Notes: generated from the letters alone by a model not told the origin. Numbered from the stretch's first letter, positions 9,865 through 31,826 are shown. The stretch: DNA of 64,000 bases from Lysobacteraceae bacterium (GCA_040255405.1 JBDZUX010000006.1:3862-67861), one strand, 5' to 3'. Made by a program: numbers and translations.

Positions 9865-11418
9865 TCATTGCAGGATCGCGCTGCCGTATGGCGGCAATTC
9901 CAGTCGACCGCCGGCGAGCGTGGTGTCCGCGCGGGTGTGCCTGAGCAATGTGTGGAACCGACTGGAGGGCAGGTTCACGGCCTGCGGTTTGCCGGAAAGA
10001 TTGTGCAACACCAGCACGTCGCCTTGCGCGTCATCCAGTTCCCACGCCGCGACCTGCATGTTGGCATCGCGCCAGGCACGGGCAACACCGTCGCGCAGCG
10101 CGGGAATGTCGCGGCGCCAGTCGATCAGCATCCGGTACCAGTCGAGCAGCGACGCGGGATCGCCCTTTTGCGCTTCGACCGAAACATCGGGGTCATCTCC
10201 CGCCGTCCAGCCTTCCCACGTCGCTTCGCCCGGTCCCTCGCCGGTGCGATACCAGCGCATCGGTTCGCGCAGGTGCGGATCGGGTTTCTTGCCGCGCATG
10301 CCGAGTTCCTCGCCGTAATAGACGAACGGATGCCCCGGCAGCGTCAACAACATCGCGGCGGCCACGCGCATGTGATCGGGATTGCCGTCGAGCTGGCTCA
10401 TCACGCGTTCGGTGTCGTGGTTGGACAAGAGCGGCGCATTGTCAAAACGCCCGCGCGCAGCGGCGCGGTAAGCCGCGTCAACGCGTGCCAGCGTGGCGCC
10501 GATGTCACGGTCGGTCTCGGTCTTTGCGCTTTCGATCAACCGTGCGGCCAGCGGGAAATCGAACACCGCATCCAGCGCACCCATCCACGGCGCGAGGTCG
10601 GCCGGGTTCTGCTGCCACACCTCGCCCACCAGCCATGCGTGCGGATTGGCCGCCTTCATGGCGCGATCGAATTCGCGCCACCAGTCGAGATTCTTCTGCA
10701 GCACCGAGGCGCTGCCCCAGTCGGTCTCGAAGTCGAGATAGACGTGCTGCGCAGCGTCCAGACGGAAGCCGTCCACGCCCTTCTTCAGCCAGAACTTGCC
10801 GACATCGATCATTTCCCTGCGCACGGCCGGGTCGTCGTAGTTCAGGTCGGGCATCCCGTCCGTGAACACGCCCAGATAGTTTTGCCCATCCGGCAGCGCG
10901 TGCCACGCGAAACCGCCGGTGGCGCTGATCGCCTTGAGGTCGGTTTTCGACACGGCCCACGTGTACCAGTCGCGGTATTTGCCGTGCGGGTCGCGCGCCG
11001 CCTCGAACCATGGGTGCTGGTTGCTGGTGTGGTTGATCACCAGATCCATCACCACCTTGATGCCCCGCTGGTGGGCCTCGCGCAGCAGCCGCTCGAAATC
11101 GGCCATCGTGCCGTACTGCGGATTGATCGCGCGGTAATCGGTGATGTCGTAACCGTGGTAGCTGGGCGATGGATTGATCGGCATCAGCCAGATGCCGCTG
11201 ACGCCCAGCGACCGCAGGTAATCGAGCTTCGCCGTGACGCCGTTCAGGTCGCCGATGCCGTCGCCGTTGGTGTCGTACCAACTGCGCACGAAAATTTCGT
11301 AGTACACGCCGGATGAAGCTTCGGCGCCATCGGAACGGGTCGGTACCGCCGCGAAAGCTGGATCGATGCCTGTCAGCCCAATCAGCAACGTGGCTACGGC
11401 CAACGCAAACCGCTTCAC
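9865..11418 (-). CDS. Secreted GH13 alpha-amylase family enzyme
   Basis: The signal peptide is MKRFALAVATLLIGLTGIDPAFA. GH13 regions are VMDLVINHTS, GFRLDAAQH, LVGEVW and LSNHDTER. The GTG start overlaps the stop of the upstream halogenase-like gene (GTGA at 11415-11418). Confidence 0.9.
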   Translation of the reverse strand: MKRFALAVATLLIGLTGIDPAFAAVPTRSDGAEASSGVYYEIFVRSWYDTNGDGIGDLNGVTAKLDYLRSLGVSGIWLMPINPSPSYHGYDITDYRAINPQYGTMADFERLLREAHQRGIKVVMDLVINHTSNQHPWFEAARDPHGKYRDWYTWAVSKTDLKAISATGGFAWHALPDGQNYLGVFTDGMPDLNYDDPAVRREMIDVGKFWLKKGVDGFRLDAAQHVYLDFETDWGSASVLQKNLDWWREFDRAMKAANPHAWLVGEVWQQNPADLAPWMGALDAVFDFPLAARLIESAKTETDRDIGATLARVDAAYRAAARGRFDNAPLLSNHDTERVMSQLDGNPDHMRVAAAMLLTLPGHPFVYYGEELGMRGKKPDPHLREPMRWYRTGEGPGEATWEGWTAGDDPDVSVEAQKGDPASLLDWYRMLIDWRRDIPALRDGVARAWRDANMQVAAWELDDAQGDVLVLHNLSGKPQAVNLPSSRFHTLLRHTRADTTLAGGRLELPPYGSAILQ

Positions 11419-12956
11419 GATGCACTCCGCGCGACTGCATGCACCGCTTCGGTCGGTGCGGGCGCGCAGGTTTTCGCCACGAAATCATCGTGCGCGGGCA
11501 AACGCTCGACCGCACGGGAAACCAGCGTACGGATATCGGACAGGAACGCCTGCAATTTCGATTCCTCCAGTCCGTCGGCCAGCGGGTGGTAACGCGCGGG
11601 TTCGACCCGCTGGCCCAGCATCACCTGCAGCCAGCCGGTTTCGGTGAACAACTCGTCGGCCTCGCGGAAGATCAATCCGGTGCGGCGGAACAGTTCGATG
11701 CGGCGCGCAAGTTCCCCGGGAACCTCCATCGCCCCGCATTGCCGCCAGAACGGCGTGTCATCGCGCTCGGTGGCCTTGTAGTGCAGGATCAGGAAATCGC
11801 GCACGCGCTCGTATTCGAAGCGCGTCTGGCGGTTGTAGGTTTCGACCAGCAACGGATCGCAATGCCTGTCCGGGAACATCCCGAGGAAGCGTGCGATACC
11901 CGATTGCACCAGGTGGATGCTGGTCGATTCCAGCGGCTCCATGAAACCGGCGGCCAGGCCCAGCGCGAGGCAGTTGCGGTTCCACGCGAGCTTGCGCATG
12001 CCGGTGACGAAGCGCAGCGGGCGCGGATCTTCCAGCCGTTCGCCCTCGATGTTGGCGAGTAATTGCGCCGCGGCCTCGTCGTCGCTGATGAACTGGCTGC
12101 TGTAGACGTGGCCGTTGCCAGTGCGGTGCTGCAGCGCGATCCGCCATTGCCAGCCGGCCGTGCGCGCGAATGCCTGCGTGTACGGCCGCATCGGCGTCGA
12201 CCTTGCGCTGGCCACCGCAATCGCGCGGTCGCACGGCAACCAATGCTGCCAGTTTTCGTAGCCCGTCTTCAGCGCGCCCTCGATCAGGAGGCCGCGGAAG
12301 CCCGAGCAGTCGATGAAGAAATCGCCTTCCACGACCTCGCCGCTTTCCAGCCGCAACGATTCGACGAAACCGTCTTCGCCGCGCAGCTTCACCTCGACGA
12401 CCTTGCCCTCGATGCGCCGCACCATGCCCTCTGGAATGCGTTCGCGCAGATAGCGCGCGTAGCGCGCGGCATCGAACTGGTAGGCGTAGCGGATGCCGCC
12501 CAGCGGCGTGTTCGGCACCTTCTCCAGCCGCGCGAACTTGTTCGAGGCGGCCGCGGCTGCGTTCAGCGAATACGCCCACAGCGAATGCGCATCGCCTTGC
12601 GCGCGGCTGCGCAACCAGTAGTGGTGGAACGGCAGCAGGCCCAGCGGCAGCCCGACGTCGCCGAATGCATGGAGGTACGAATCGCCGATGCGTCCCCAGT
12701 CGTTGAGTTGCACGCCCAGCTTGTAGGTGCCGTGAGTGAAGCGCATCAGGTCATCCTCGTCGATGCCGAGGAACGCATTGATGTGCTGGATCTGCGGGAT
12801 CGTGGCCTCGCCCACGCCGACGGTGCCGATCTCGGCGGATTCGACCAGGTGTATTTCGCAGGCGCGCCCGACACCGCGCGCCAGCAGCGCCGCCGCCATC
12901 CAGCCGGCGGTGCCGCCACCCACGATCACCACGCGCCGGATCGCCGCGTCGTTCAT
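11415..12956 (-). CDS. FAD-dependent tryptophan-halogenase family protein
   Basis: The dinucleotide fold is MNDAAIRRVVIVGGGTAGWMAA, and the near-WxWxIP block is GWQWRIALQ. The protein is about 510 aa. An alternative GTG start is at 13016. Confidence 0.8.
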   Translation of the reverse strand: MNDAAIRRVVIVGGGTAGWMAAALLARGVGRACEIHLVESAEIGTVGVGEATIPQIQHINAFLGIDEDDLMRFTHGTYKLGVQLNDWGRIGDSYLHAFGDVGLPLGLLPFHHYWLRSRAQGDAHSLWAYSLNAAAAASNKFARLEKVPNTPLGGIRYAYQFDAARYARYLRERIPEGMVRRIEGKVVEVKLRGEDGFVESLRLESGEVVEGDFFIDCSGFRGLLIEGALKTGYENWQHWLPCDRAIAVASARSTPMRPYTQAFARTAGWQWRIALQHRTGNGHVYSSQFISDDEAAAQLLANIEGERLEDPRPLRFVTGMRKLAWNRNCLALGLAAGFMEPLESTSIHLVQSGIARFLGMFPDRHCDPLLVETYNRQTRFEYERVRDFLILHYKATERDDTPFWRQCGAMEVPGELARRIELFRRTGLIFREADELFTETGWLQVMLGQRVEPARYHPLADGLEESKLQAFLSDIRTLVSRAVERLPAHDDFVAKTCAPAPTEAVHAVARSAS

Positions 12957-13109
12957 TGCGGAAAGGTACAACGCGCGATTTGCAGAATTGCCCAGGACGG
13001 CAAAAGCTTTTGACACGGATCAATACGGATGAAGGCCGGCGAAGCGACCCGATCAGTGCCGAACCTCAACCACAACCTCGTCATTTCAAGACAGTCCACC
13101 GTTTTCGTG

Positions 13110-22029: not shown

Positions 22030-24096
<2,067 letters not shown>

Positions 24097-24118
24097 CCCG
24101 ACATTATACGTTTGCCCT

Positions 24119-24137
24119 GCTGACAACCCTTGTCAGC
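24119..24137. promoter_or_regulatory. Short inverted repeat in the uvrB / SIR2-TIR divergent region
   Basis: GCTGACAA-ccc-TTGTCAGC has 8-bp perfect arms. Confidence 0.3.
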
Positions 24138-24234
24138 AAGGTGCCGCAGGCCGGCAACCACCCGCCGTGGGCAGCCCATGCAACCGGCCATCCGCTGGAG
24201 TAAGCTCCGCGCGTCCATTGCGAGGGTTGGCGAA

Positions 24235-25617
24235 ATGACGCTGCCGAACGCTGTCGAGACGCCGCAGAGTTTTGACGACGACGCATGGGACGACCTCCTC
24301 AATTACATCGAGGAGCACCGGGTCATTCCGATCATCGGTCCCGACCTGCTGCGGGTGCAGACCGACGGCGGCCTGCGCCCCCTGTACGTCTGGCTCGCGG
24401 AGAAACTGGCGGCGCGCCTGTCGGTCAACACGACCGAACTGCCGCAGCCGCTCACGCTCAACGACGTGATGTGTTCGTACCTCGGCCAGCGCGGGCGCCG
24501 CGAGGAAGCCTACACGCGGTTGCGTTCGATCATGCGCGAGGTGCAATTCGAGCCGCCGATGGCGTTGCGGCAACTGGCGCAGATCGCCGACTTCGACCTG
24601 TTCGTCACGACGACCTTCGACCCGCTGCTCGAAAACGCCGTCAACCAGGAACGTTACGGCGGCCAGCCTTCGGCCGAAGTGATCGCCTACTCGCCCAACC
24701 GCGTCGCCGACCTGCCCTGCGAACGCGCCGACCTGCGCCGCAGCGTGGTGTACCACCTGCTCGGCCGACTGTCCGCCTCGCCCACGTACGTGTTGTCCGA
24801 CGAGGACATGCTGGAGTTCATCTGCGCGTTGCAGTCCGAACACCTGACGCCGGAAAAACTCTTCCACGAACTTGAACACAACCACCTGCTCCTGATAGGC
24901 AGCGACTTCTCCAACTGGCTGGCGCGGTTGTTCCTGCGCATGGCCAAGCGCAAGCGCCTGTCCGACCCGCGCGATGTCACCGAGGTTTTCGCCGACGACC
25001 ACACCGCCAAGGACGCACGCCTGGTCGCGTTCCTGCAGCAGGTCAGCGTGCGCACGCGCGTGTACGGCGGCGCGGAATCCTTCGTCGCCGAGCTGCACCA
25101 GCGCTGGAGCGCGCGCCAGCGCCCGGCGCAGACCTCGCCTTCGCATGCGCCGCAACGCTTCCTGCCGCCGGCACGCGAGATGCCGGAGAACGCGATCTTC
25201 ATCAGCTACGCACGCGAGGACCTGCCCGCGGTGCAACGGTTGAAAGCCGGCATGGATGCGGCCGGGCTCACCACCTGGTTCGATCTCGACCGTCTCGAAG
25301 GCGGCGACGATTACGATCGCAAGATCCGTGCGAACATCGCGCGTTGCAGTTTCTTCGTGCCAGTGATTTCGGCCACGACCGAGCACCGCCACGAAGCCTA
25401 CTTCCGCCGTGAATGGAGCTACGCGGTCGACCGCGCGCGCAACATCGCGGAAGGCGCGGTGTTCATCCTGCCGGTTTGCATCGACGACACGCCCGAAGCC
25501 ACCACACTGGTGCCGGAGCATTTCAAGGCGGTGCACATGACGCGCCTGCCAAGCGGCGAGGCCACGCCGGGATTCCTGCGCCGCTTGCAGGAACTGCTGA
25601 GCGGGAGGCGCGCATGA
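24235..25617 (+). CDS. SIR2-like (SIR2_2-type) domain / TIR domain fusion protein
   Basis: N-terminal blocks are VIPIIGPDLL, DLFVTTTFDPLLENA, VVYHLLGRLSASPTYVLSDEDMLEF and HLLLIGSDFSNWL. The C-terminal TIR domain is AIFISYAREDLPAVQRLKAGMDAAGLTTWFDLDRLEGGDDYDRKI...CSFFVPVIS...YFRREWSYAVDRA...FILPVCID. GAGGG lies 8 nt before ATG 24235, with an alternative ATG at 24178. Confidence 0.8.
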   Translation: MTLPNAVETPQSFDDDAWDDLLNYIEEHRVIPIIGPDLLRVQTDGGLRPLYVWLAEKLAARLSVNTTELPQPLTLNDVMCSYLGQRGRREEAYTRLRSIMREVQFEPPMALRQLAQIADFDLFVTTTFDPLLENAVNQERYGGQPSAEVIAYSPNRVADLPCERADLRRSVVYHLLGRLSASPTYVLSDEDMLEFICALQSEHLTPEKLFHELEHNHLLLIGSDFSNWLARLFLRMAKRKRLSDPRDVTEVFADDHTAKDARLVAFLQQVSVRTRVYGGAESFVAELHQRWSARQRPAQTSPSHAPQRFLPPAREMPENAIFISYAREDLPAVQRLKAGMDAAGLTTWFDLDRLEGGDDYDRKIRANIARCSFFVPVISATTEHRHEAYFRREWSYAVDRARNIAEGAVFILPVCIDDTPEATTLVPEHFKAVHMTRLPSGEATPGFLRRLQELLSGRRA

Positions 25618-28600
25618 ACGACATCAACCGCCGCGACACGGTGATGCTCGATCCGGAAAACCCCTGGCTCGGGCTGTTTTCCTACTCCGAGGAAACCCGC
25701 GCGTATTTCCACGGCCGCGACGAGGAAGCGGCGGAGCTCGCGCGGCGCGTGCAGCGCAAACTGTTGACAGTGCTGTTCGGGCAATCGGGCCTGGGCAAGA
25801 CTTCGCTGTTGCGCGCGGGTCTGGTGCCGCGCCTGCGCGGTGCCGACTTCTGCCCGGTTTACGTGCGCGTCGACTACGCGCCCGGATCGCCCTCGCCTTC
25901 CGAGCAGATCAAGCAGGCGATCTTCCGTGCCACCGCGGAAGCCGGCCACTGGACGCGGCCGGGTAGCGCGATCGAAGGCGAATCGCTGTGGGAATTCCTG
26001 CACCACCGCGAAGACCTGCTGCGCGATGCCGACGGCCACACGCTGATGCCGCTGCTGATCTTCGACCAGTTCGAGGAAATCTTCACGCTCGGGCAGGCCG
26101 ATGACGCGGGCCGCCTGCGCGCAAAACAGTTCCTCGAGGACCTCGCCGACCTCGTCGAGAACCGTGCGCCGGCGGCGCTGGAAAAACGCCTGGAGGAAGA
26201 CGACCAGGCCGCCGAACAGTTCGATTTTGCGCGTGCCGATTACCGCGTGCTGATCGCGCTGCGCGAGGACTATCTCGCGCACCTGGAAAGCGTGAAGGAC
26301 ATCATGCCTTCGATCACGCAGAACCGGATGCGGCTGGCGCGCATGAACGGCGCGCAGGCACTGAGCGCGGTGGTGAAACCCGGCGGCAAGCTGGTATCGC
26401 AGGAAGTCGCCGAAGCGATCGTGCGCTTTGTCGCCGGGGGGTCGGAACTGGCCAACGCGGAGATCGAACCTTCGCTGCTGAGCCTGGTATGCCGCGAACT
26501 CAACGCGGCACGGCAGGCGCAGGGACGCCGCGAAATTTCCGCCGACCTGCTGGCGGGCTCACGCGACACGATCCTGTCCGAGTTCTACGAACGCGCACTG
26601 GCCGACCAGCCGACCGGCGTACGGCGCGTGATCGAGGACGAACTGCTGACCGAATCCGGCTATCGCGAAAGCCTGGCCGAGGAACGCGTGCGCAAGGCAC
26701 TGGACGCCGCGGGCGCCTCTCCCGATGCGTTGCCCACGCTGGTGAACCGCCGCTTGCTGCGCATCGAGGAACGCCTCGACATGCGCCGCGTGGAACTGAC
26801 CCACGACGTGCTGTGCAGCGTGGTGCTCGCCAGTCGCAACCAGCGCCATGCCCGCGAAGCGCGCGAGGAAGCCGAGCGCCAGCTCACCGCGCAACGCGAA
26901 CGCGAGGCAGCAACGCACCGCGCCCTGCTGCGCACGCGCATGGTCGCGACCGTCTGCGTGGTGTTGCTGGTACTCGCGATCATCGCAGCGATGTTCGGCT
27001 TCATCGGCATGCACCGCGCCAAGATCGCGCAGGCGGAAGCCCAGGCCTCGCGCACGCACGCGGAAAACCTGGTCGGCTTCATGATCGATGACTTCTACAA
27101 CGAGCTCGCACCCACTGGCCGGCTAGGCACGCTGGGCATGCTGGCGCAGAAAACCGTGGATTACTACGACGGCTTGCCGCCGGCGTTGCTCACCCCGGAA
27201 ACCGAAATCAACAAGGCGATGGCGCTGGTGCGCCTGGGTTCGGCCCAGAATGCCAGCGGCGACGACAAAGCCGCGCGCAAGAATTTCGGCGAAGCCCAGG
27301 CGATCTTCGGGAAGCTGCGCGCGGCGGGCAACGATGGCGAGCCGGTGGTCTATGGCCTCGCCTCGATCCTGTACAACGCGAATTACGGATCCGCCGTGGG
27401 CGGCGGGAGTTCGGCGCCGATGGATCAGGCTGCCGCCCTGCTGCGGCCGCTCGTCAACGCTGCCAATCCGTCGCGCCGGGTGCGGCAACTTTACGCCGAT
27501 ACCTTGAACATCATCTGCCTCAACCAGCGGCCGCAGCAAGGCCTGGCAACCTGCGAAGAGGCGCTCAAGACGCTTGCGGGCCTTGGCGCGCTGGATTTGT
27601 CGGATTTGAATGCCGCAGCCTCCTGGGCCGATACCGCCGATACCAAGTCCGGGGAACTGCAGGCACTCGGCCGCATCGGTGAAGCCGAAAAGCTGGAGCA
27701 GCAGGTGTTTGCGATGACCGAAAAGGTCCTGGCGCGCCGGCCGGGCGATTTGCATTCGCTGGAAGATCGCTTCTTTGCCGTGAAGCGGCTCGGTGATCTT
27801 GCGGCGGGCCGGCACGATGCGACGGCGGCCGCGAAGCATGCGAACGAAGCCGTGCAGGCCGCCGAGGATTGGGTACGCTTCGACCCGTCCAGTGTCGATG
27901 CCTGGGCCAGGCTGGCGCAGGCCCGGAGCCAGGTTGCCACGTTCCAGTTCGAGCGCGGCGAGGTATCCACTTCCATCGCCACCCTGCGCGCGGCGCTGGC
28001 GTTGGCGCAGGACCCGCGCAGCCCCAAACCCCTCGCTGCCGTGACCTGGTACATCCGGCTCGACCTCGCGAGAGCCATCGCGGAGACCGGCGAAGGGGGG
28101 GCGGAGCAGTCGGCGCAGGCCGCCGTGCGGGACCTGCAATCGCTGATGGCGGATCGGCCGCCCGAATCTGCCCAGCGCCGGCTTGCGGCGACCAACCTGC
28201 CGCTGGCACTCGGGGATATCAAACTGAGCCAGGGTGCACTGCAACCGGCATTGGCCGAGGCCACCGCGGCGCGCGCCGCAATCCAGCCGATCGATGTGCC
28301 GGCGACGGACGCAGGCGCGACCCGCTGGAAAAACCAGAACCTGGCGGACAGTCTCAACGTCGCCACGCGAGCCTCCATGCAGCTCGGGCGCTACGCGCAA
28401 GCGGAAACCCTGGCGCGCCAGTGGCTCGCGATCATCCCGAACGCGACGGCCACGCAAGCCGATCCGAAACCGCGTGAATCGCGCGCCCGGTACATCCTCG
28501 CGCAGGCGATCGCGATGCAGGGCCGCCGCGACGAGGCCAAGGCAACCCTGCAACCGGCGATGACCTGGTACCGTCAAGAACAACAAGCCGGCGCGACCGG

Positions 28601-28808
28601 CACGTCGTTCCGCCACGATTACGCCTACGCGCTGTACGTTGATTCCCTGATCGCGCCTGCGGGCGCCGCGGGCAGCAGGCAGCGCGACGCTGACCTCGAC
28701 CAGGCCGCCAGGTTGCTTGCCGGAGCCTCGCCGGAGGCGCAGCGACTCAGCGCGATGCGCCATATTTCCGGGCTGCTCGCCAAAGCCCGCACGACGACGG
28801 GCGCCTGA
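25614..28808 (+). CDS. nSTAND-type P-loop NTPase with one TM helix and a C-terminal helical-repeat (TPR-like) domain
   Basis: The ATG overlaps the upstream stop (ATGA 25614-25617). The N-terminus is NPWLGLFSYSEETRAYFHGRDEEAAELARRV..LTVLFGQSGLGKTSLLRAGLVPRL (Walker A). Walker B is LLIFDQFEE. The TM helix is MVATVCVVLLVLAIIAAMFGFIGM (nt about 26940-27011). About 600 aa of Ala/Leu-rich helical repeats follow. The track start 25413 lies inside the upstream gene. Confidence 0.8.
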   Translation: MNDINRRDTVMLDPENPWLGLFSYSEETRAYFHGRDEEAAELARRVQRKLLTVLFGQSGLGKTSLLRAGLVPRLRGADFCPVYVRVDYAPGSPSPSEQIKQAIFRATAEAGHWTRPGSAIEGESLWEFLHHREDLLRDADGHTLMPLLIFDQFEEIFTLGQADDAGRLRAKQFLEDLADLVENRAPAALEKRLEEDDQAAEQFDFARADYRVLIALREDYLAHLESVKDIMPSITQNRMRLARMNGAQALSAVVKPGGKLVSQEVAEAIVRFVAGGSELANAEIEPSLLSLVCRELNAARQAQGRREISADLLAGSRDTILSEFYERALADQPTGVRRVIEDELLTESGYRESLAEERVRKALDAAGASPDALPTLVNRRLLRIEERLDMRRVELTHDVLCSVVLASRNQRHAREAREEAERQLTAQREREAATHRALLRTRMVATVCVVLLVLAIIAAMFGFIGMHRAKIAQAEAQASRTHAENLVGFMIDDFYNELAPTGRLGTLGMLAQKTVDYYDGLPPALLTPETEINKAMALVRLGSAQNASGDDKAARKNFGEAQAIFGKLRAAGNDGEPVVYGLASILYNANYGSAVGGGSSAPMDQAAALLRPLVNAANPSRRVRQLYADTLNIICLNQRPQQGLATCEEALKTLAGLGALDLSDLNAAASWADTADTKSGELQALGRIGEAEKLEQQVFAMTEKVLARRPGDLHSLEDRFFAVKRLGDLAAGRHDATAAAKHANEAVQAAEDWVRFDPSSVDAWARLAQARSQVATFQFERGEVSTSIATLRAALALAQDPRSPKPLAAVTWYIRLDLARAIAETGEGGAEQSAQAAVRDLQSLMADRPPESAQRRLAATNLPLALGDIKLSQGALQPALAEATAARAAIQPIDVPATDAGATRWKNQNLADSLNVATRASMQLGRYAQAETLARQWLAIIPNATATQADPKPRESRARYILAQAIAMQGRRDEAKATLQPAMTWYRQEQQAGATGTSFRHDYAYALYVDSLIAPAGAAGSRQRDADLDQAARLLAGASPEAQRLSAMRHISGLLAKARTTTGA

Positions 28809-28895
28809 GCACAGGGGTCTTCCCCACGCAACCCGACGCCCCCAAGTTCCTGGCAAGCACCACCCGGGCACGTTCAACCGAAGCGGAACCGCGCC

Positions 28896-29321
28896 ATGGA
28901 CACAGATGAAATCCACGTTGGCCGACTGGGCATCCGTTACCTCGTCGATGGCGCTCAGCAGGGAAGCATGGGCATCTTCGAATTGACCGTGCCGCCTGCC
29001 TCGAACGTTCCGCCCCCGCACAGCCATTCGAACAACGAAGAAATCGTCTACGTCCTCGAGGGCACGCTGCGCTACAGCGTCGGCGCCGACACGCGCGATC
29101 TCGCACCCGGGGAATCCATGCACACCCCAAAGGGTACGGTGCACGGGTTCTCGAATCCCTTTGCCGGCACCGCGCGAGCGCTGATCGTCATGTCTCCGGA
29201 CCTGGGCGCCCAATACTTCAGGGAGATGGCCGCGGTGATCAACGCAGGCGGGCCACCGGACAAGGGCACGCTGGTCTCCATCATGAGCCGCTACGGACTG
29301 GTCCCGTCCGCCCCGAAGTGA
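28896..29321 (+). CDS. Cupin domain protein
   Basis: The 141-aa ORF has the metal motif PPPHSHSNNEEIVYVLEG...H.P.G.VHGF. Confidence 0.75.
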   Translation: MDTDEIHVGRLGIRYLVDGAQQGSMGIFELTVPPASNVPPPHSHSNNEEIVYVLEGTLRYSVGADTRDLAPGESMHTPKGTVHGFSNPFAGTARALIVMSPDLGAQYFREMAAVINAGGPPDKGTLVSIMSRYGLVPSAPK

Positions 29322-29499
29322 CTGGCTGCCGACACTTGCACGCGCCTCGCATGCCGCCGCCGGCCAGGTGATCAACCGACGGAAGACCGACACCCTTACA
29401 TCGAGCGTGGGCAGGCGCCCACAAACACCGGCGGCGTCTACCGCTGCCGCGAATTCTGTCCGTCGCCGAGACTGTTCCCATCGCATGGAGGGAACGGTC

Positions 29500-31749: not shown

Positions 31750-31826
31750 TGGCGCCCGAACTTGGACTCGAACCAAGGACCCCCAGATTAACAGTCTAGT
31801 GCTCTAACCAGCTGAGCTATTCGGGC
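31750..31826 (-). tRNA. tRNA-Asn (anticodon GUU), CCA encoded
   Basis: The reverse complement is GCCCGAATAGCTCAGCTGGTTAGAGCACTAGACTGTTAATCTGGGGGTCCTTGGTTCGAGTCCAAGTTCGGGCGCCA. It has a 7-bp acceptor stem GCCCGAA/TTCGGGC, the anticodon loop CTGTTAA and the T-loop TTCGAGT. Length is 77 nt. Confidence 0.95.

Follow-up and report, generated by a model that had tools for sequence, protein, structure and literature searches.

A two-gene cassette encoding a soluble SIR2-TIR protein and an nSTAND1 NTPase with a predicted periplasmic TPR-like ectodomain

We analyzed a 64,000-nucleotide stretch of DNA from a Lysobacteraceae bacterium (GCA_040255405.1, JBDZUX010000006.1:3862-67861; hereafter the window) that carries a two-gene cassette, in which the gene for a protein with SIR2-like and TIR domains runs, by a 4-bp overlap of its TGA with the next ATG, into the gene for a large STAND NTPase. 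With high confidence, the STAND protein is predicted to be a bitopic protein of the inner membrane, with a cytoplasmic NTPase (residues 1-440), one transmembrane (TM) helix, and a stalk and solenoid (residues 467-1064) in the periplasm. To our knowledge, every characterized prokaryotic STAND or NLR-like immune protein responds to cues in the cytoplasm and has a sensor domain that physically gates its NTPase. If the sensor instead lies across the membrane, STAND activation would need proximity or clustering, or release from the membrane.

The STAND gene sits in a longer open reading frame (ORF; 25413-28808), within which the ATG at 25614 is taken as the best start because it overlaps the upstream stop codon (ATGA) and yields the length typical of homologues, 1064 aa. 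Residues 18-429 match the Pfam model nSTAND1 (PF20703, Novel STAND NTPase 1; E=9e-33, 114.9 bits against a cut-off of 27.1) over profile positions 1-368 of 379. Both Walker motifs are intact (GxxxxGK[ST] for Walker A, and hhhhD followed by acidic residues for Walker B), and a G..G.GK[ST] motif was found in all full-length STAND relatives. By these features of sequence and fold, the protein is assigned to the nSTAND1 clade among STAND NTPases. It has no N-terminal effector, given that nSTAND1 already begins at residue 18. A scan against NCBIfam gave no equivalog match, and a sequence search against the PDB gave no match. A first-pass annotation, made from the DNA alone, had described an NTPase and winged-helix region followed by a charged segment and then a single hydrophobic stretch of 24 residues, and this order was borne out by the PF20703 match and by the positions of the charged segment REAREEAERQLTAQREREAATHRALL (residues 414-439) and the hydrophobic segment MVATVCVVLLVLAIIAAMFGFIGM (residues 443-466). 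Residue 443 corresponds to nucleotide 26940, and 26940-28808 thus extends from the first residue of the hydrophobic segment through the stop codon.

The hydrophobic segment stands out from the rest of the protein. Its Kyte-Doolittle mean over 19 residues (KD19) is 3.0, a value reached by two of 2000 composition-preserving shuffles of the STAND protein, and its Hessa apparent free energy sums to -4.1 kcal/mol, compared with +7.7 in the next-best stretch of the protein. Elsewhere KD19 never exceeds 0.86, and there is no second hydrophobic segment. The first-pass annotation had named two findings that would undermine its topology, a helix of re-entrant or amphipathic character and homologues that lack the segment, and we found neither. 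The apolar core consists of 22-24 uninterrupted residues without a central Pro or turn, and a re-entrant hairpin is unlikely because such a core is too short for one and has no turn motif. The segment is present in all 120 close homologues (64-100% identity), in all 29 diverse full-length relatives (C-terminal part 27-50% identical) and in all 76 full-length ORFs from genome loci of Gammaproteobacteria, Betaproteobacteria and Verrucomicrobia (Rhodanobacteraceae, other Lysobacterales, Steroidobacteraceae, Casimicrobiaceae, Usitatibacteraceae, Burkholderiales, Opitutaceae and Lacunisphaera). The sequence of the helix drifts while its hydrophobicity stays constant (entropy 1.10 bits, against ~0.3 in the NTPase), which suggests a lipid-facing helix rather than one buried in a protein core.

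The orientation of the helix can be predicted from several features. No N-terminal signal peptide was found in the STAND protein, whose N-terminus is polar (maximum KD12 of 0.21). Among the 29 diverse members, the 15 residues on the N side of the helix contain on average 4.9 K+R and those on the C side 3.3, and the net charges of the flanks are +3.5 and +1.6, respectively. In addition, a 440-residue P-loop NTPase needs cytoplasmic nucleotide and is not exportable as an N-tail. Given the lack of a signal peptide and of a second segment, the positive bias on the N side and the requirement of the NTPase for the cytoplasm, we predict an N-in/C-out orientation. The strongest independent argument is that a homologous module follows Hanks kinase domains. 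These domains are cytoplasmic, and a kinase, a TM helix and an ectodomain in succession form the classical receptor-kinase layout. We therefore consider it very probable that the residues beyond the helix, including the solenoid, are located in the periplasm. The placement of the repeat domain beyond the membrane, first proposed from the sequence of this gene, is thus well supported, on computational grounds, by helix conservation, charge bias, the absent signal peptide and the layout of the kinases.

An AlphaFold2 model of residues 400-1064, made from an alignment of 105 homologues, has a mean pLDDT (predicted local distance difference test) of 90.2 and a pTM (predicted template modeling score) of 0.85. 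It consists of a long helix (401-441), a break, a second helix (445-501) and then ~26 helices, or ~13 hairpins, with pLDDT >90. The second helix comprises the hydrophobic segment and a 35-residue stalk, and is of low confidence, as expected of isolated helices. Foldseek comparison of the ectodomain with the PDB returned TPR-type solenoids only (CNOT10, Ski3, Ctr9, separase, subunits of the APC and consensus TPRs), with a probability of 1.0, 10-16% identity and TM-scores of 0.2-0.5. Pfam TPR models remained below their cut-offs on the STAND protein (TPR_10, 19.0 against 27.5 bits; TPR_19, 16.6 against 25). Judging from the modeled fold, the ectodomain is a TPR-like superhelix without a specific solved relative, and the earlier description of the ~600 C-terminal residues as helical hairpin repeats agrees with both the predicted helices and the Foldseek matches. 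A conserved Cys pair, as a signature of a periplasmic disulfide, was sought in the ectodomain, and a single conserved Cys was found in the consensus of our alignment A1.

The module that begins with the TM helix is not confined to STAND proteins. When residues 440-1064 were used to search 1.8 billion representative proteins, 1539 relatives were identified, and in the full-length ones the unit of helix, stalk and solenoid is preceded by nSTAND1 or by a Hanks Ser/Thr kinase domain. The kinase-borne modules, in relatives from Verrucomicrobia and Planctomycetes, are 30-38% identical to the STAND module over ~600 aa. The charged juxtamembrane helix (401-441) is not common to the kinase versions. 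In a crude neighbor-joining tree, without support values, of 35 STAND and 97 kinase C-terminal modules, the STAND and kinase chassis are intermingled. The repeated grouping of sisters with different chassis (P0169K/P0171S, P0341K/P0166S, P0258K/P0220S and P0135S/P0141K/P0339K) indicates that the whole module was exchanged several times between kinase and STAND proteins. Conservation across both chassis is highest in the stalk next to the membrane and in the first hairpin (residues 469-545; signature RAxxAE...LVxFxxDDFYxELxPxGRL...YYDxLP), a pattern that fits signal transmission through the helix.

For the kinase part of the module relatives, the best match in the PDB is 9eed_A, a kinase-domain protein of 364 aa; the search was made with the A1 profile and returned kinases alone, the kinase columns being in the alignment, and thus bears on the kinase part and not on the ectodomain. 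Its length fits the 1-364 construct of PknS from Xanthomonas citri (PMC13147305). PknS is an experimentally studied receptor kinase described with periplasmic TPRs, and dimerization is the usual activation mechanism of receptor kinases of this type; its periplasmic domain has been discussed as possibly required for localization (PMC13147305). The STAND protein and the PknS-type kinases have the same single-pass topology, and the module is homologous in the kinase relatives from Verrucomicrobia and Planctomycetes; the likeness to PknS itself is one of topology and of the kinase part. They differ in output, which in the kinases acts on FHA or sigma-factor partners, whereas here it would pass through a STAND NTPase and SIR2-TIR.

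Kinase proteins with the homologous ectodomain adjoin genes for FHA-domain proteins at two loci (L084, 1-8120; L083, 5001-9003). At the first of these, a further kinase with TPR_12 repeats is also adjacent, as are genes for Prok-RING_1 and UQ_con (E2-like) proteins, and this group of genes may form another conflict-type cluster. One ectodomain relative, P0193 (824 aa), has an N-terminal 4Fe-4S dicluster domain ahead of the TM helix, and is either a third kind of chassis or a chimera of assembly or gene calling.

The gene order of the window (uvrB, SIR2-TIR, STAND, fimT) is shared by 14 loci, and against these relatives rates of evolution were measured for UvrB, SIR2-TIR and regions of STAND (Table 1). 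The ectodomain evolves 4-10 times faster than the NTPase, and residues 811-960 are only 32-40% identical where the NTPase of the same proteins is 90-96% identical. Synonymous divergence (dS) is uneven in L003 (0.19 over residues 467-810, 0.59 in the NTPase and 0.99 over 961-1064), which points to a recombination mosaic within the STAND gene. In L063, the NTPase is 88% identical and everything from the helix onward only 27-42% identical, as would result from replacement of the module. Per-helix entropy is 0.6-1.0 bits near the membrane, rises to 1.9-2.45 bits in helices 17-22 (812-923) and is then lower. Within the variable helices, core positions have 0.1-0.5 bits and surface positions 2.5-3.6 bits, which suggests that the fold is kept while the surface diversifies.

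The partner encoded upstream, whose start codon was set from homologues of 460-463 aa, matches Pfam SIR2_2 (E=2.5e-11) and TIR_2 (E=1.1e-16). It has no hydrophobic segment (maximum KD19 of 1.17) and is predicted to be soluble. A SIR2-TIR homologue lies directly upstream of the STAND gene, whose start it overlaps by 4 bp, in all 80 loci that have upstream DNA. The partner is the more constant of the two proteins, being 70-95% identical where STAND is 46-89% identical, and 44% of the columns of its alignment are at least 98% invariant across three classes or phyla. In L010, L011 and L043 it is more conserved than the neighboring UvrB (89-93% against 80-82% identity), which is unusual for a presumed defense effector. 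The TIR domain resembles PdTIR (3H16) and BtpA (4LZP), in local alignments that stop at a Trp. This residue (W393) is invariant, as are E392 (W-1), D398 (W+5) and R399, and all four are also kept in a sister protein of 30% identity.

That sister protein belongs to a distantly related cassette, L085, on a megaplasmid of Paraburkholderia caribensis MBA4 (NZ_CP012748.1, 2568-5926). It has the domains SIR2_2 and TIR_2 and again overlaps, by 4 bp, the gene for a 660-aa nSTAND1 protein with an NTPase 36% identical to that studied here. After a TM helix at ~433-455, the latter continues into an unrelated, non-TPR C-terminal domain of ~200 aa. Because the helix is kept in a sister system whose C-terminal domain is unrelated, comparison of the two sequences suggests that the helix is an old and defining feature of this nSTAND1 branch, and that the domain beyond it is the exchangeable part. 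A scan of metagenomes with the Paraburkholderia STAND found nothing. The gene upstream of this cassette (413-1855) encodes a protein with MAP3K_TRAF_bd and TPR-S domains.

The STAND system is present in at least ~470 species-level genomes, with one copy of the cassette seen per genome, and occurs in Gammaproteobacteria, Betaproteobacteria and Verrucomicrobia at ~48% identity. Its flanks are specific to lineages (uvrB in the window, uvrC/pgsA in L001, ahpC/dsbA in L002), which suggests that the SIR2-TIR/STAND pair moves as a unit. No full-length homologues were found on phages or plasmids, with the exception of the Paraburkholderia sister system.

Some loci have a third gene, for a protein with SLATT modules. 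It lies directly downstream of STAND in eight loci (L002, L014, L015, L016, L018, L019, L020 and L039) and ~3 kb from STAND in a ninth (L022), or in ~10% of loci in all; in L002 it occupies 11231-12982, and it is absent from the window. Its product (~583 aa) consists of a SLOG-like N-terminal region, which has no Pfam match, and two SLATT pore modules with two TM helices each (DUF4231/SLATT_3 and SLATT_1/6). From its domains, this gene hints that a nucleotide product may be made by SIR2-TIR and read out. The SLOG-like part also has weak matches (28-33% identity over ~150-165 aa) in three verrucomicrobial loci, on the opposite strand and upstream of the cassette (L042, 1486-1929; L059, 1-408; L064, 2664-3110).

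In the window, the surroundings of the cassette include genes for a TonB-dependent receptor, an amylase, a LacI-type regulator, a glucokinase, a Na+/H+ exchanger, an AmiC-type amidase and PanC. A 141-aa cupin-like protein, assigned by reading the translation, is encoded at 28896-29321, between STAND and a FimT-like pilin gene. Among the 14 syntenic loci this gene was found only in the window and in L006, and elsewhere fimT directly follows STAND. Promoter and terminator scans of 23900-29400 gave results at or below the level of shuffled sequence. The sole Rfam match in the 64-kb window is a tRNA gene at 31753-31826 on the minus strand.

Table 1. Features of the SIR2-TIR/STAND cassette, with positions in the window, and divergence from the syntenic relatives (dN/dS, ratio of nonsynonymous to synonymous substitution rates)
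Feature	Position	Strand	Basis	Amino-acid identity	dN/dS
Partner gene, predicted soluble SIR2-like + TIR protein, 460 aa	24235..25617	+	Pfam SIR2_2, TIR_2; start from homologues	84-95%	0.07-0.16
SIR2_2 match (Rossmann core) in partner; motif TTTFD	24598..24993	+	Pfam		
TIR_2 domain of partner	25195..25542	+	Pfam		
STAND gene: nSTAND1 NTPase, charged helix, one TM helix, TPR-like ectodomain	25614..28808	+	ORF, Pfam, homologue length		
nSTAND1 NTPase module (P-loop, helical and winged-helix regions), predicted cytoplasmic	25662..26897	+	PF20703, 114.9 bits	88-97%	0.04-0.14
Walker A GQSGLGKTS, residues 56-64	25779..25805	+	Read from translation		
Walker B LLIFDQFEE, residues 147-155	26052..26078	+	Read from translation		
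Charged cytoplasmic juxtamembrane helix (predicted), residues 401-441	26814..26936	+	AlphaFold2 single helix, model residues 2-42, low pLDDT		
Single TM helix, residues 443-466, predicted N-in/C-out	26940..27011	+	Hydrophobicity, homologue conservation, flanking charges		
Stalk on predicted periplasmic side and first hairpin, residues 467-545	27012..27248	+	Near-invariant columns of alignment A1, entropy 0.5-0.8 bits		
TPR-like superhelix, ~13 helical hairpins, residues ~510-1063, predicted periplasmic	27141..28805	+	AlphaFold2, Foldseek		
Ectodomain, residues 546-810				51-96%	0.10-0.35
Most variable ectodomain stretch, residues 811-960	28044..28493	+	Identity and per-helix entropy	32-88%	0.18-0.82
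UvrB				80-95%	0.06-0.22

We lean toward reading the cassette as a two-gene, translationally coupled receptor system, in which a bitopic STAND with a periplasmic solenoid sensor signals by proximity to its soluble SIR2-TIR partner, and in which the solenoid is a portable, surface-diversifying binding module that also drives receptor Ser/Thr kinases. The data show the domain composition, helix conservation, strict gene pairing, sharing and exchange of the module and the contrast in rates among domains; we infer the sensor role, proximity signaling, NAD+ chemistry, biological trigger and role in defense. In this scenario, binding of an extracytoplasmic ligand, which could be a protein from a phage, competitor or predator, or a perturbed component of the envelope, would alter the clustering or packing of ectodomains. 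The TM helix and the long helices that flank it would draw the cytoplasmic NTPase modules together, and NTP-dependent oligomerization of STAND would follow. The oligomer would then activate SIR2-TIR by proximity, and SIR2-TIR would consume or convert NAD+; where the SLOG-like/SLATT membrane protein is present, at about a tenth of loci, it may serve as the readout of a nucleotide product. Autoinhibition by fold-back, as in other STAND proteins, would be inapplicable because the membrane separates sensor from NTPase. By analogy, activation by proximity matches the presumed dimerization-driven activation of the kinases that carry the same module.

A more specific version can be put forward only tentatively. 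In this case, the protein would be a widespread bacterial NLR-like receptor that resembles Toll-like receptors and plant receptor kinases in topology. Its hypervariable periplasmic TPR domain would detect foreign proteins at the envelope and, across the membrane, trigger a STAND oligomer in the cytoplasm, which would in turn activate SIR2-TIR as an NAD+ enzyme. Such proteins might be phage adsorption or ejection proteins, bacteriocins, type VI secretion system effectors or predator factors, detected before or without their entry into the cytoplasm. The sensor would also be a cassette interchangeable between STAND and kinase chassis.

Several observations weigh against a receptor system of the kind that we favor. 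The C-side flank of the TM helix also bears K and R, and the charge bias is only moderate. The canonical SIR2 NADase motif is TTNYD, with a catalytic Asn and a catalytic His. In the partner the motif is TTTFD, in which an invariant Thr takes the place of the canonical Asn (none of 71 homologues departs from T126, F127 or D128), and H173, kept in 70 of the 71, is aligned with a Tyr in the Paraburkholderia sister. The position of the canonical catalytic Glu of TIR domains (W+4, WxxxE) is occupied by V, I or L, with an invariant Asp adjoining. Given that the positions of the SIR2 Asn, the SIR2 His and the TIR Glu are all atypical, NADase activity of the partner is not assured, and the two effector domains may both be non-canonical. 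For the partner, AlphaFold2 with a shallow alignment (84-97% identity) gave a model with a pLDDT of only 43.6. PADLOC matched the TIR region of the partner alone (ThsB, E=0.015), and its scan of STAND gave no family at E<=0.1. A defense-island context was considered and rejected, as the neighbors in the window, L001 and L002 are housekeeping genes. In one Rhodanobacteraceae lineage the cassette is stably placed between uvrB and fimT (14 loci). A claim of positive selection on the ectodomain was considered and dropped, with dN/dS <1 and dS near saturation in the informative pairs. Purifying selection on the NTPase and on SIR2-TIR is as strong as on UvrB, and such strong purifying selection, together with stable synteny, is unusual for fast-turnover anti-phage genes.

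Some of these points would be accommodated if the cassette were a physiological pathway rather than an immune one, with the periplasmic TPR domain monitoring the endogenous state of the envelope (peptidoglycan, the outer membrane, pili or Tol-Pal) and adjusting NAD+-linked metabolism or dormancy. The stable position by uvrB, the housekeeping neighbors, the single copy per genome, the lack of a PADLOC match to STAND and the atypical catalytic residues of SIR2 and TIR all favor this view. So do the rates of SIR2-TIR, which are close to those of UvrB (Table 1), its greater conservation than UvrB in the two most divergent syntenic pairs, and the share of its columns that is invariant across three classes or phyla. 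However, the differing flanks and the occurrence in three classes or phyla at ~48% identity point to horizontal spread, a hypervariable and recombined ectodomain surface is not expected with an endogenous, invariant ligand, and STAND, TIR, SIR2 and SLATT are all hallmark domains of conflict systems (Kaur et al.). We therefore regard a purely physiological role as unlikely, though it is the best of the alternatives.

Two further alternatives concern the ectodomain, and both seem to us rather less likely still. First, it may merely anchor or scaffold the protein at a site in the envelope, with the trigger sensed in the cytoplasm or the plane of the membrane by the NTPase region, the TM helix or SIR2-TIR. 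TPR domains are generic scaffolds for protein-protein interactions, conservation is highest in the membrane-proximal stalk and first hairpins, and localization has been discussed as a possible function of the periplasmic domain of PknS (PMC13147305). Yet ~600 residues with a diversifying, recombining surface are not needed for an anchor, the module was apparently exchanged as a unit between kinases and STANDs, and in the sister system the ectodomain is replaced by another fold while the helix is kept. Second, the helix and bulky ectodomain may hold an inactive NTPase at the membrane until regulated proteolysis (site-1, then site-2) frees it to oligomerize and activate SIR2-TIR. The architecture is that of single-pass anti-sigma factors, and DdvA undergoes RseP-dependent intramembrane proteolysis after removal of its ectodomain (PMC11506125); the TM helix is also rich in small residues, and a long stalk of low model confidence lies between helix and solenoid. 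On the other hand, the cassette has no conserved protease gene, the sequence bears no mark of a cleavage site, and the same module drives kinases, for which dimerization, not release, is usual.

It is very improbable that the segment is buried, monotopic or re-entrant and that the TPR domain lies in the cytoplasm, as in ordinary Avs-type STANDs, because the basic residues at both ends of the segment and the low AlphaFold2 confidence near it, which would allow this, are outweighed by the length and hydrophobicity of an apolar run too small for a hairpin and without a turn motif, by invariant hydrophobicity in a variable sequence, by an isolated straight helix that in the model packs against neither domain, and by the use of the same element to join cytoplasmic kinase domains to the module.

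Avs proteins were reportedly described by Gao et al. in 2022 as bacterial NLR-like antiviral STAND proteins. Like Avs, the protein studied here has a STAND NTPase followed by TPR-type repeats, the expected logic is ligand-induced oligomerization, and SIR2 and TIR occur as effectors of Avs and bNACHT proteins. Unlike in Avs, a TM helix parts the NTPase from the repeats, so that the predicted sensor would be out of reach of phage proteins in the cytoplasm; the effector is encoded by its own, translationally coupled gene rather than fused to STAND; and the NTPase is of the nSTAND1 clade, without a PADLOC match. Thoeris (ThsB with TIR, ThsA with SIR2-SLOG or TM-Macro) has TIR and SIR2 domains in common with the cassette, some loci of which have the SLOG-like/SLATT gene. 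Here, however, SIR2 and TIR are fused, without SLOG, and are taken to depend on a STAND partner; the match to ThsB is weak and confined to TIR, and the window lacks SLOG and Macro domains. The resemblance to Toll-like receptors and plant receptor kinases is one of analogy only, in that a solenoid ectodomain, one TM helix and a cytoplasmic signaling module are combined with TIR-domain assemblies or proximity-induced activation. The ectodomains are not homologous (TPR here, leucine-rich repeats there), and in our case TIR is separate and an NLR-type NTPase is interposed.

Periplasmic recognition by related proteins has been proposed before. Kibby et al. suggested that some NACHT proteins with TM regions may recognize signals within the membrane or in the periplasm, Kaur et al. 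(2020/2021) described related TM-linked conflict systems, and Doré et al. predicted, for one NACHT protein targeted by a diversity-generating retroelement, a CLec sensor in the periplasm. The NACHT proteins with TM regions are likewise NLR-related NTPases with membrane segments, for which periplasmic or intramembrane recognition was proposed from sequence; the protein described here differs in being nSTAND1, with exactly one helix, a large folded ectodomain and an obligate SIR2-TIR partner. Sensors in the periplasm or membrane go unmentioned in the text of a 2026 survey of STAND proteins (PMC13581612). Control of phage defense by a periplasmic sensor that contains TPRs has an experimental precedent in DdvA, a single-pass protein with a large periplasmic TPR-containing domain that was proposed to sense an extracytoplasmic, phage-associated cue and switch on defense (PMC11506125). 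Its output is transcriptional (proteolytic release of an extracytoplasmic function sigma factor), its ectodomain carries a CHAT protease, and it has neither an NTPase nor an NAD+ effector (PMC11506125). Our literature searches gave no match for 'SIR2-TIR' and no description of nSTAND1-TM-TPR proteins. By the PADLOC and NCBIfam scans, the system is not Avs, Thoeris or another catalogued system. For the particular combination of SIR2-TIR with nSTAND1, one helix and a TPR ectodomain shared with kinases, we found no description, while the idea of sensing in the periplasm is already in print.

If our reading is correct, bacteria would possess an NLR-type pathway for surveillance of the envelope. 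The family is tractable, given that it consists of two genes in hundreds of species, with a conserved core and a naturally variable ectodomain, and that homologous kinase ectodomains permit domain swaps. It could thus make testable how attack on the envelope is perceived, and how STAND switches may be driven without fold-back autoinhibition.

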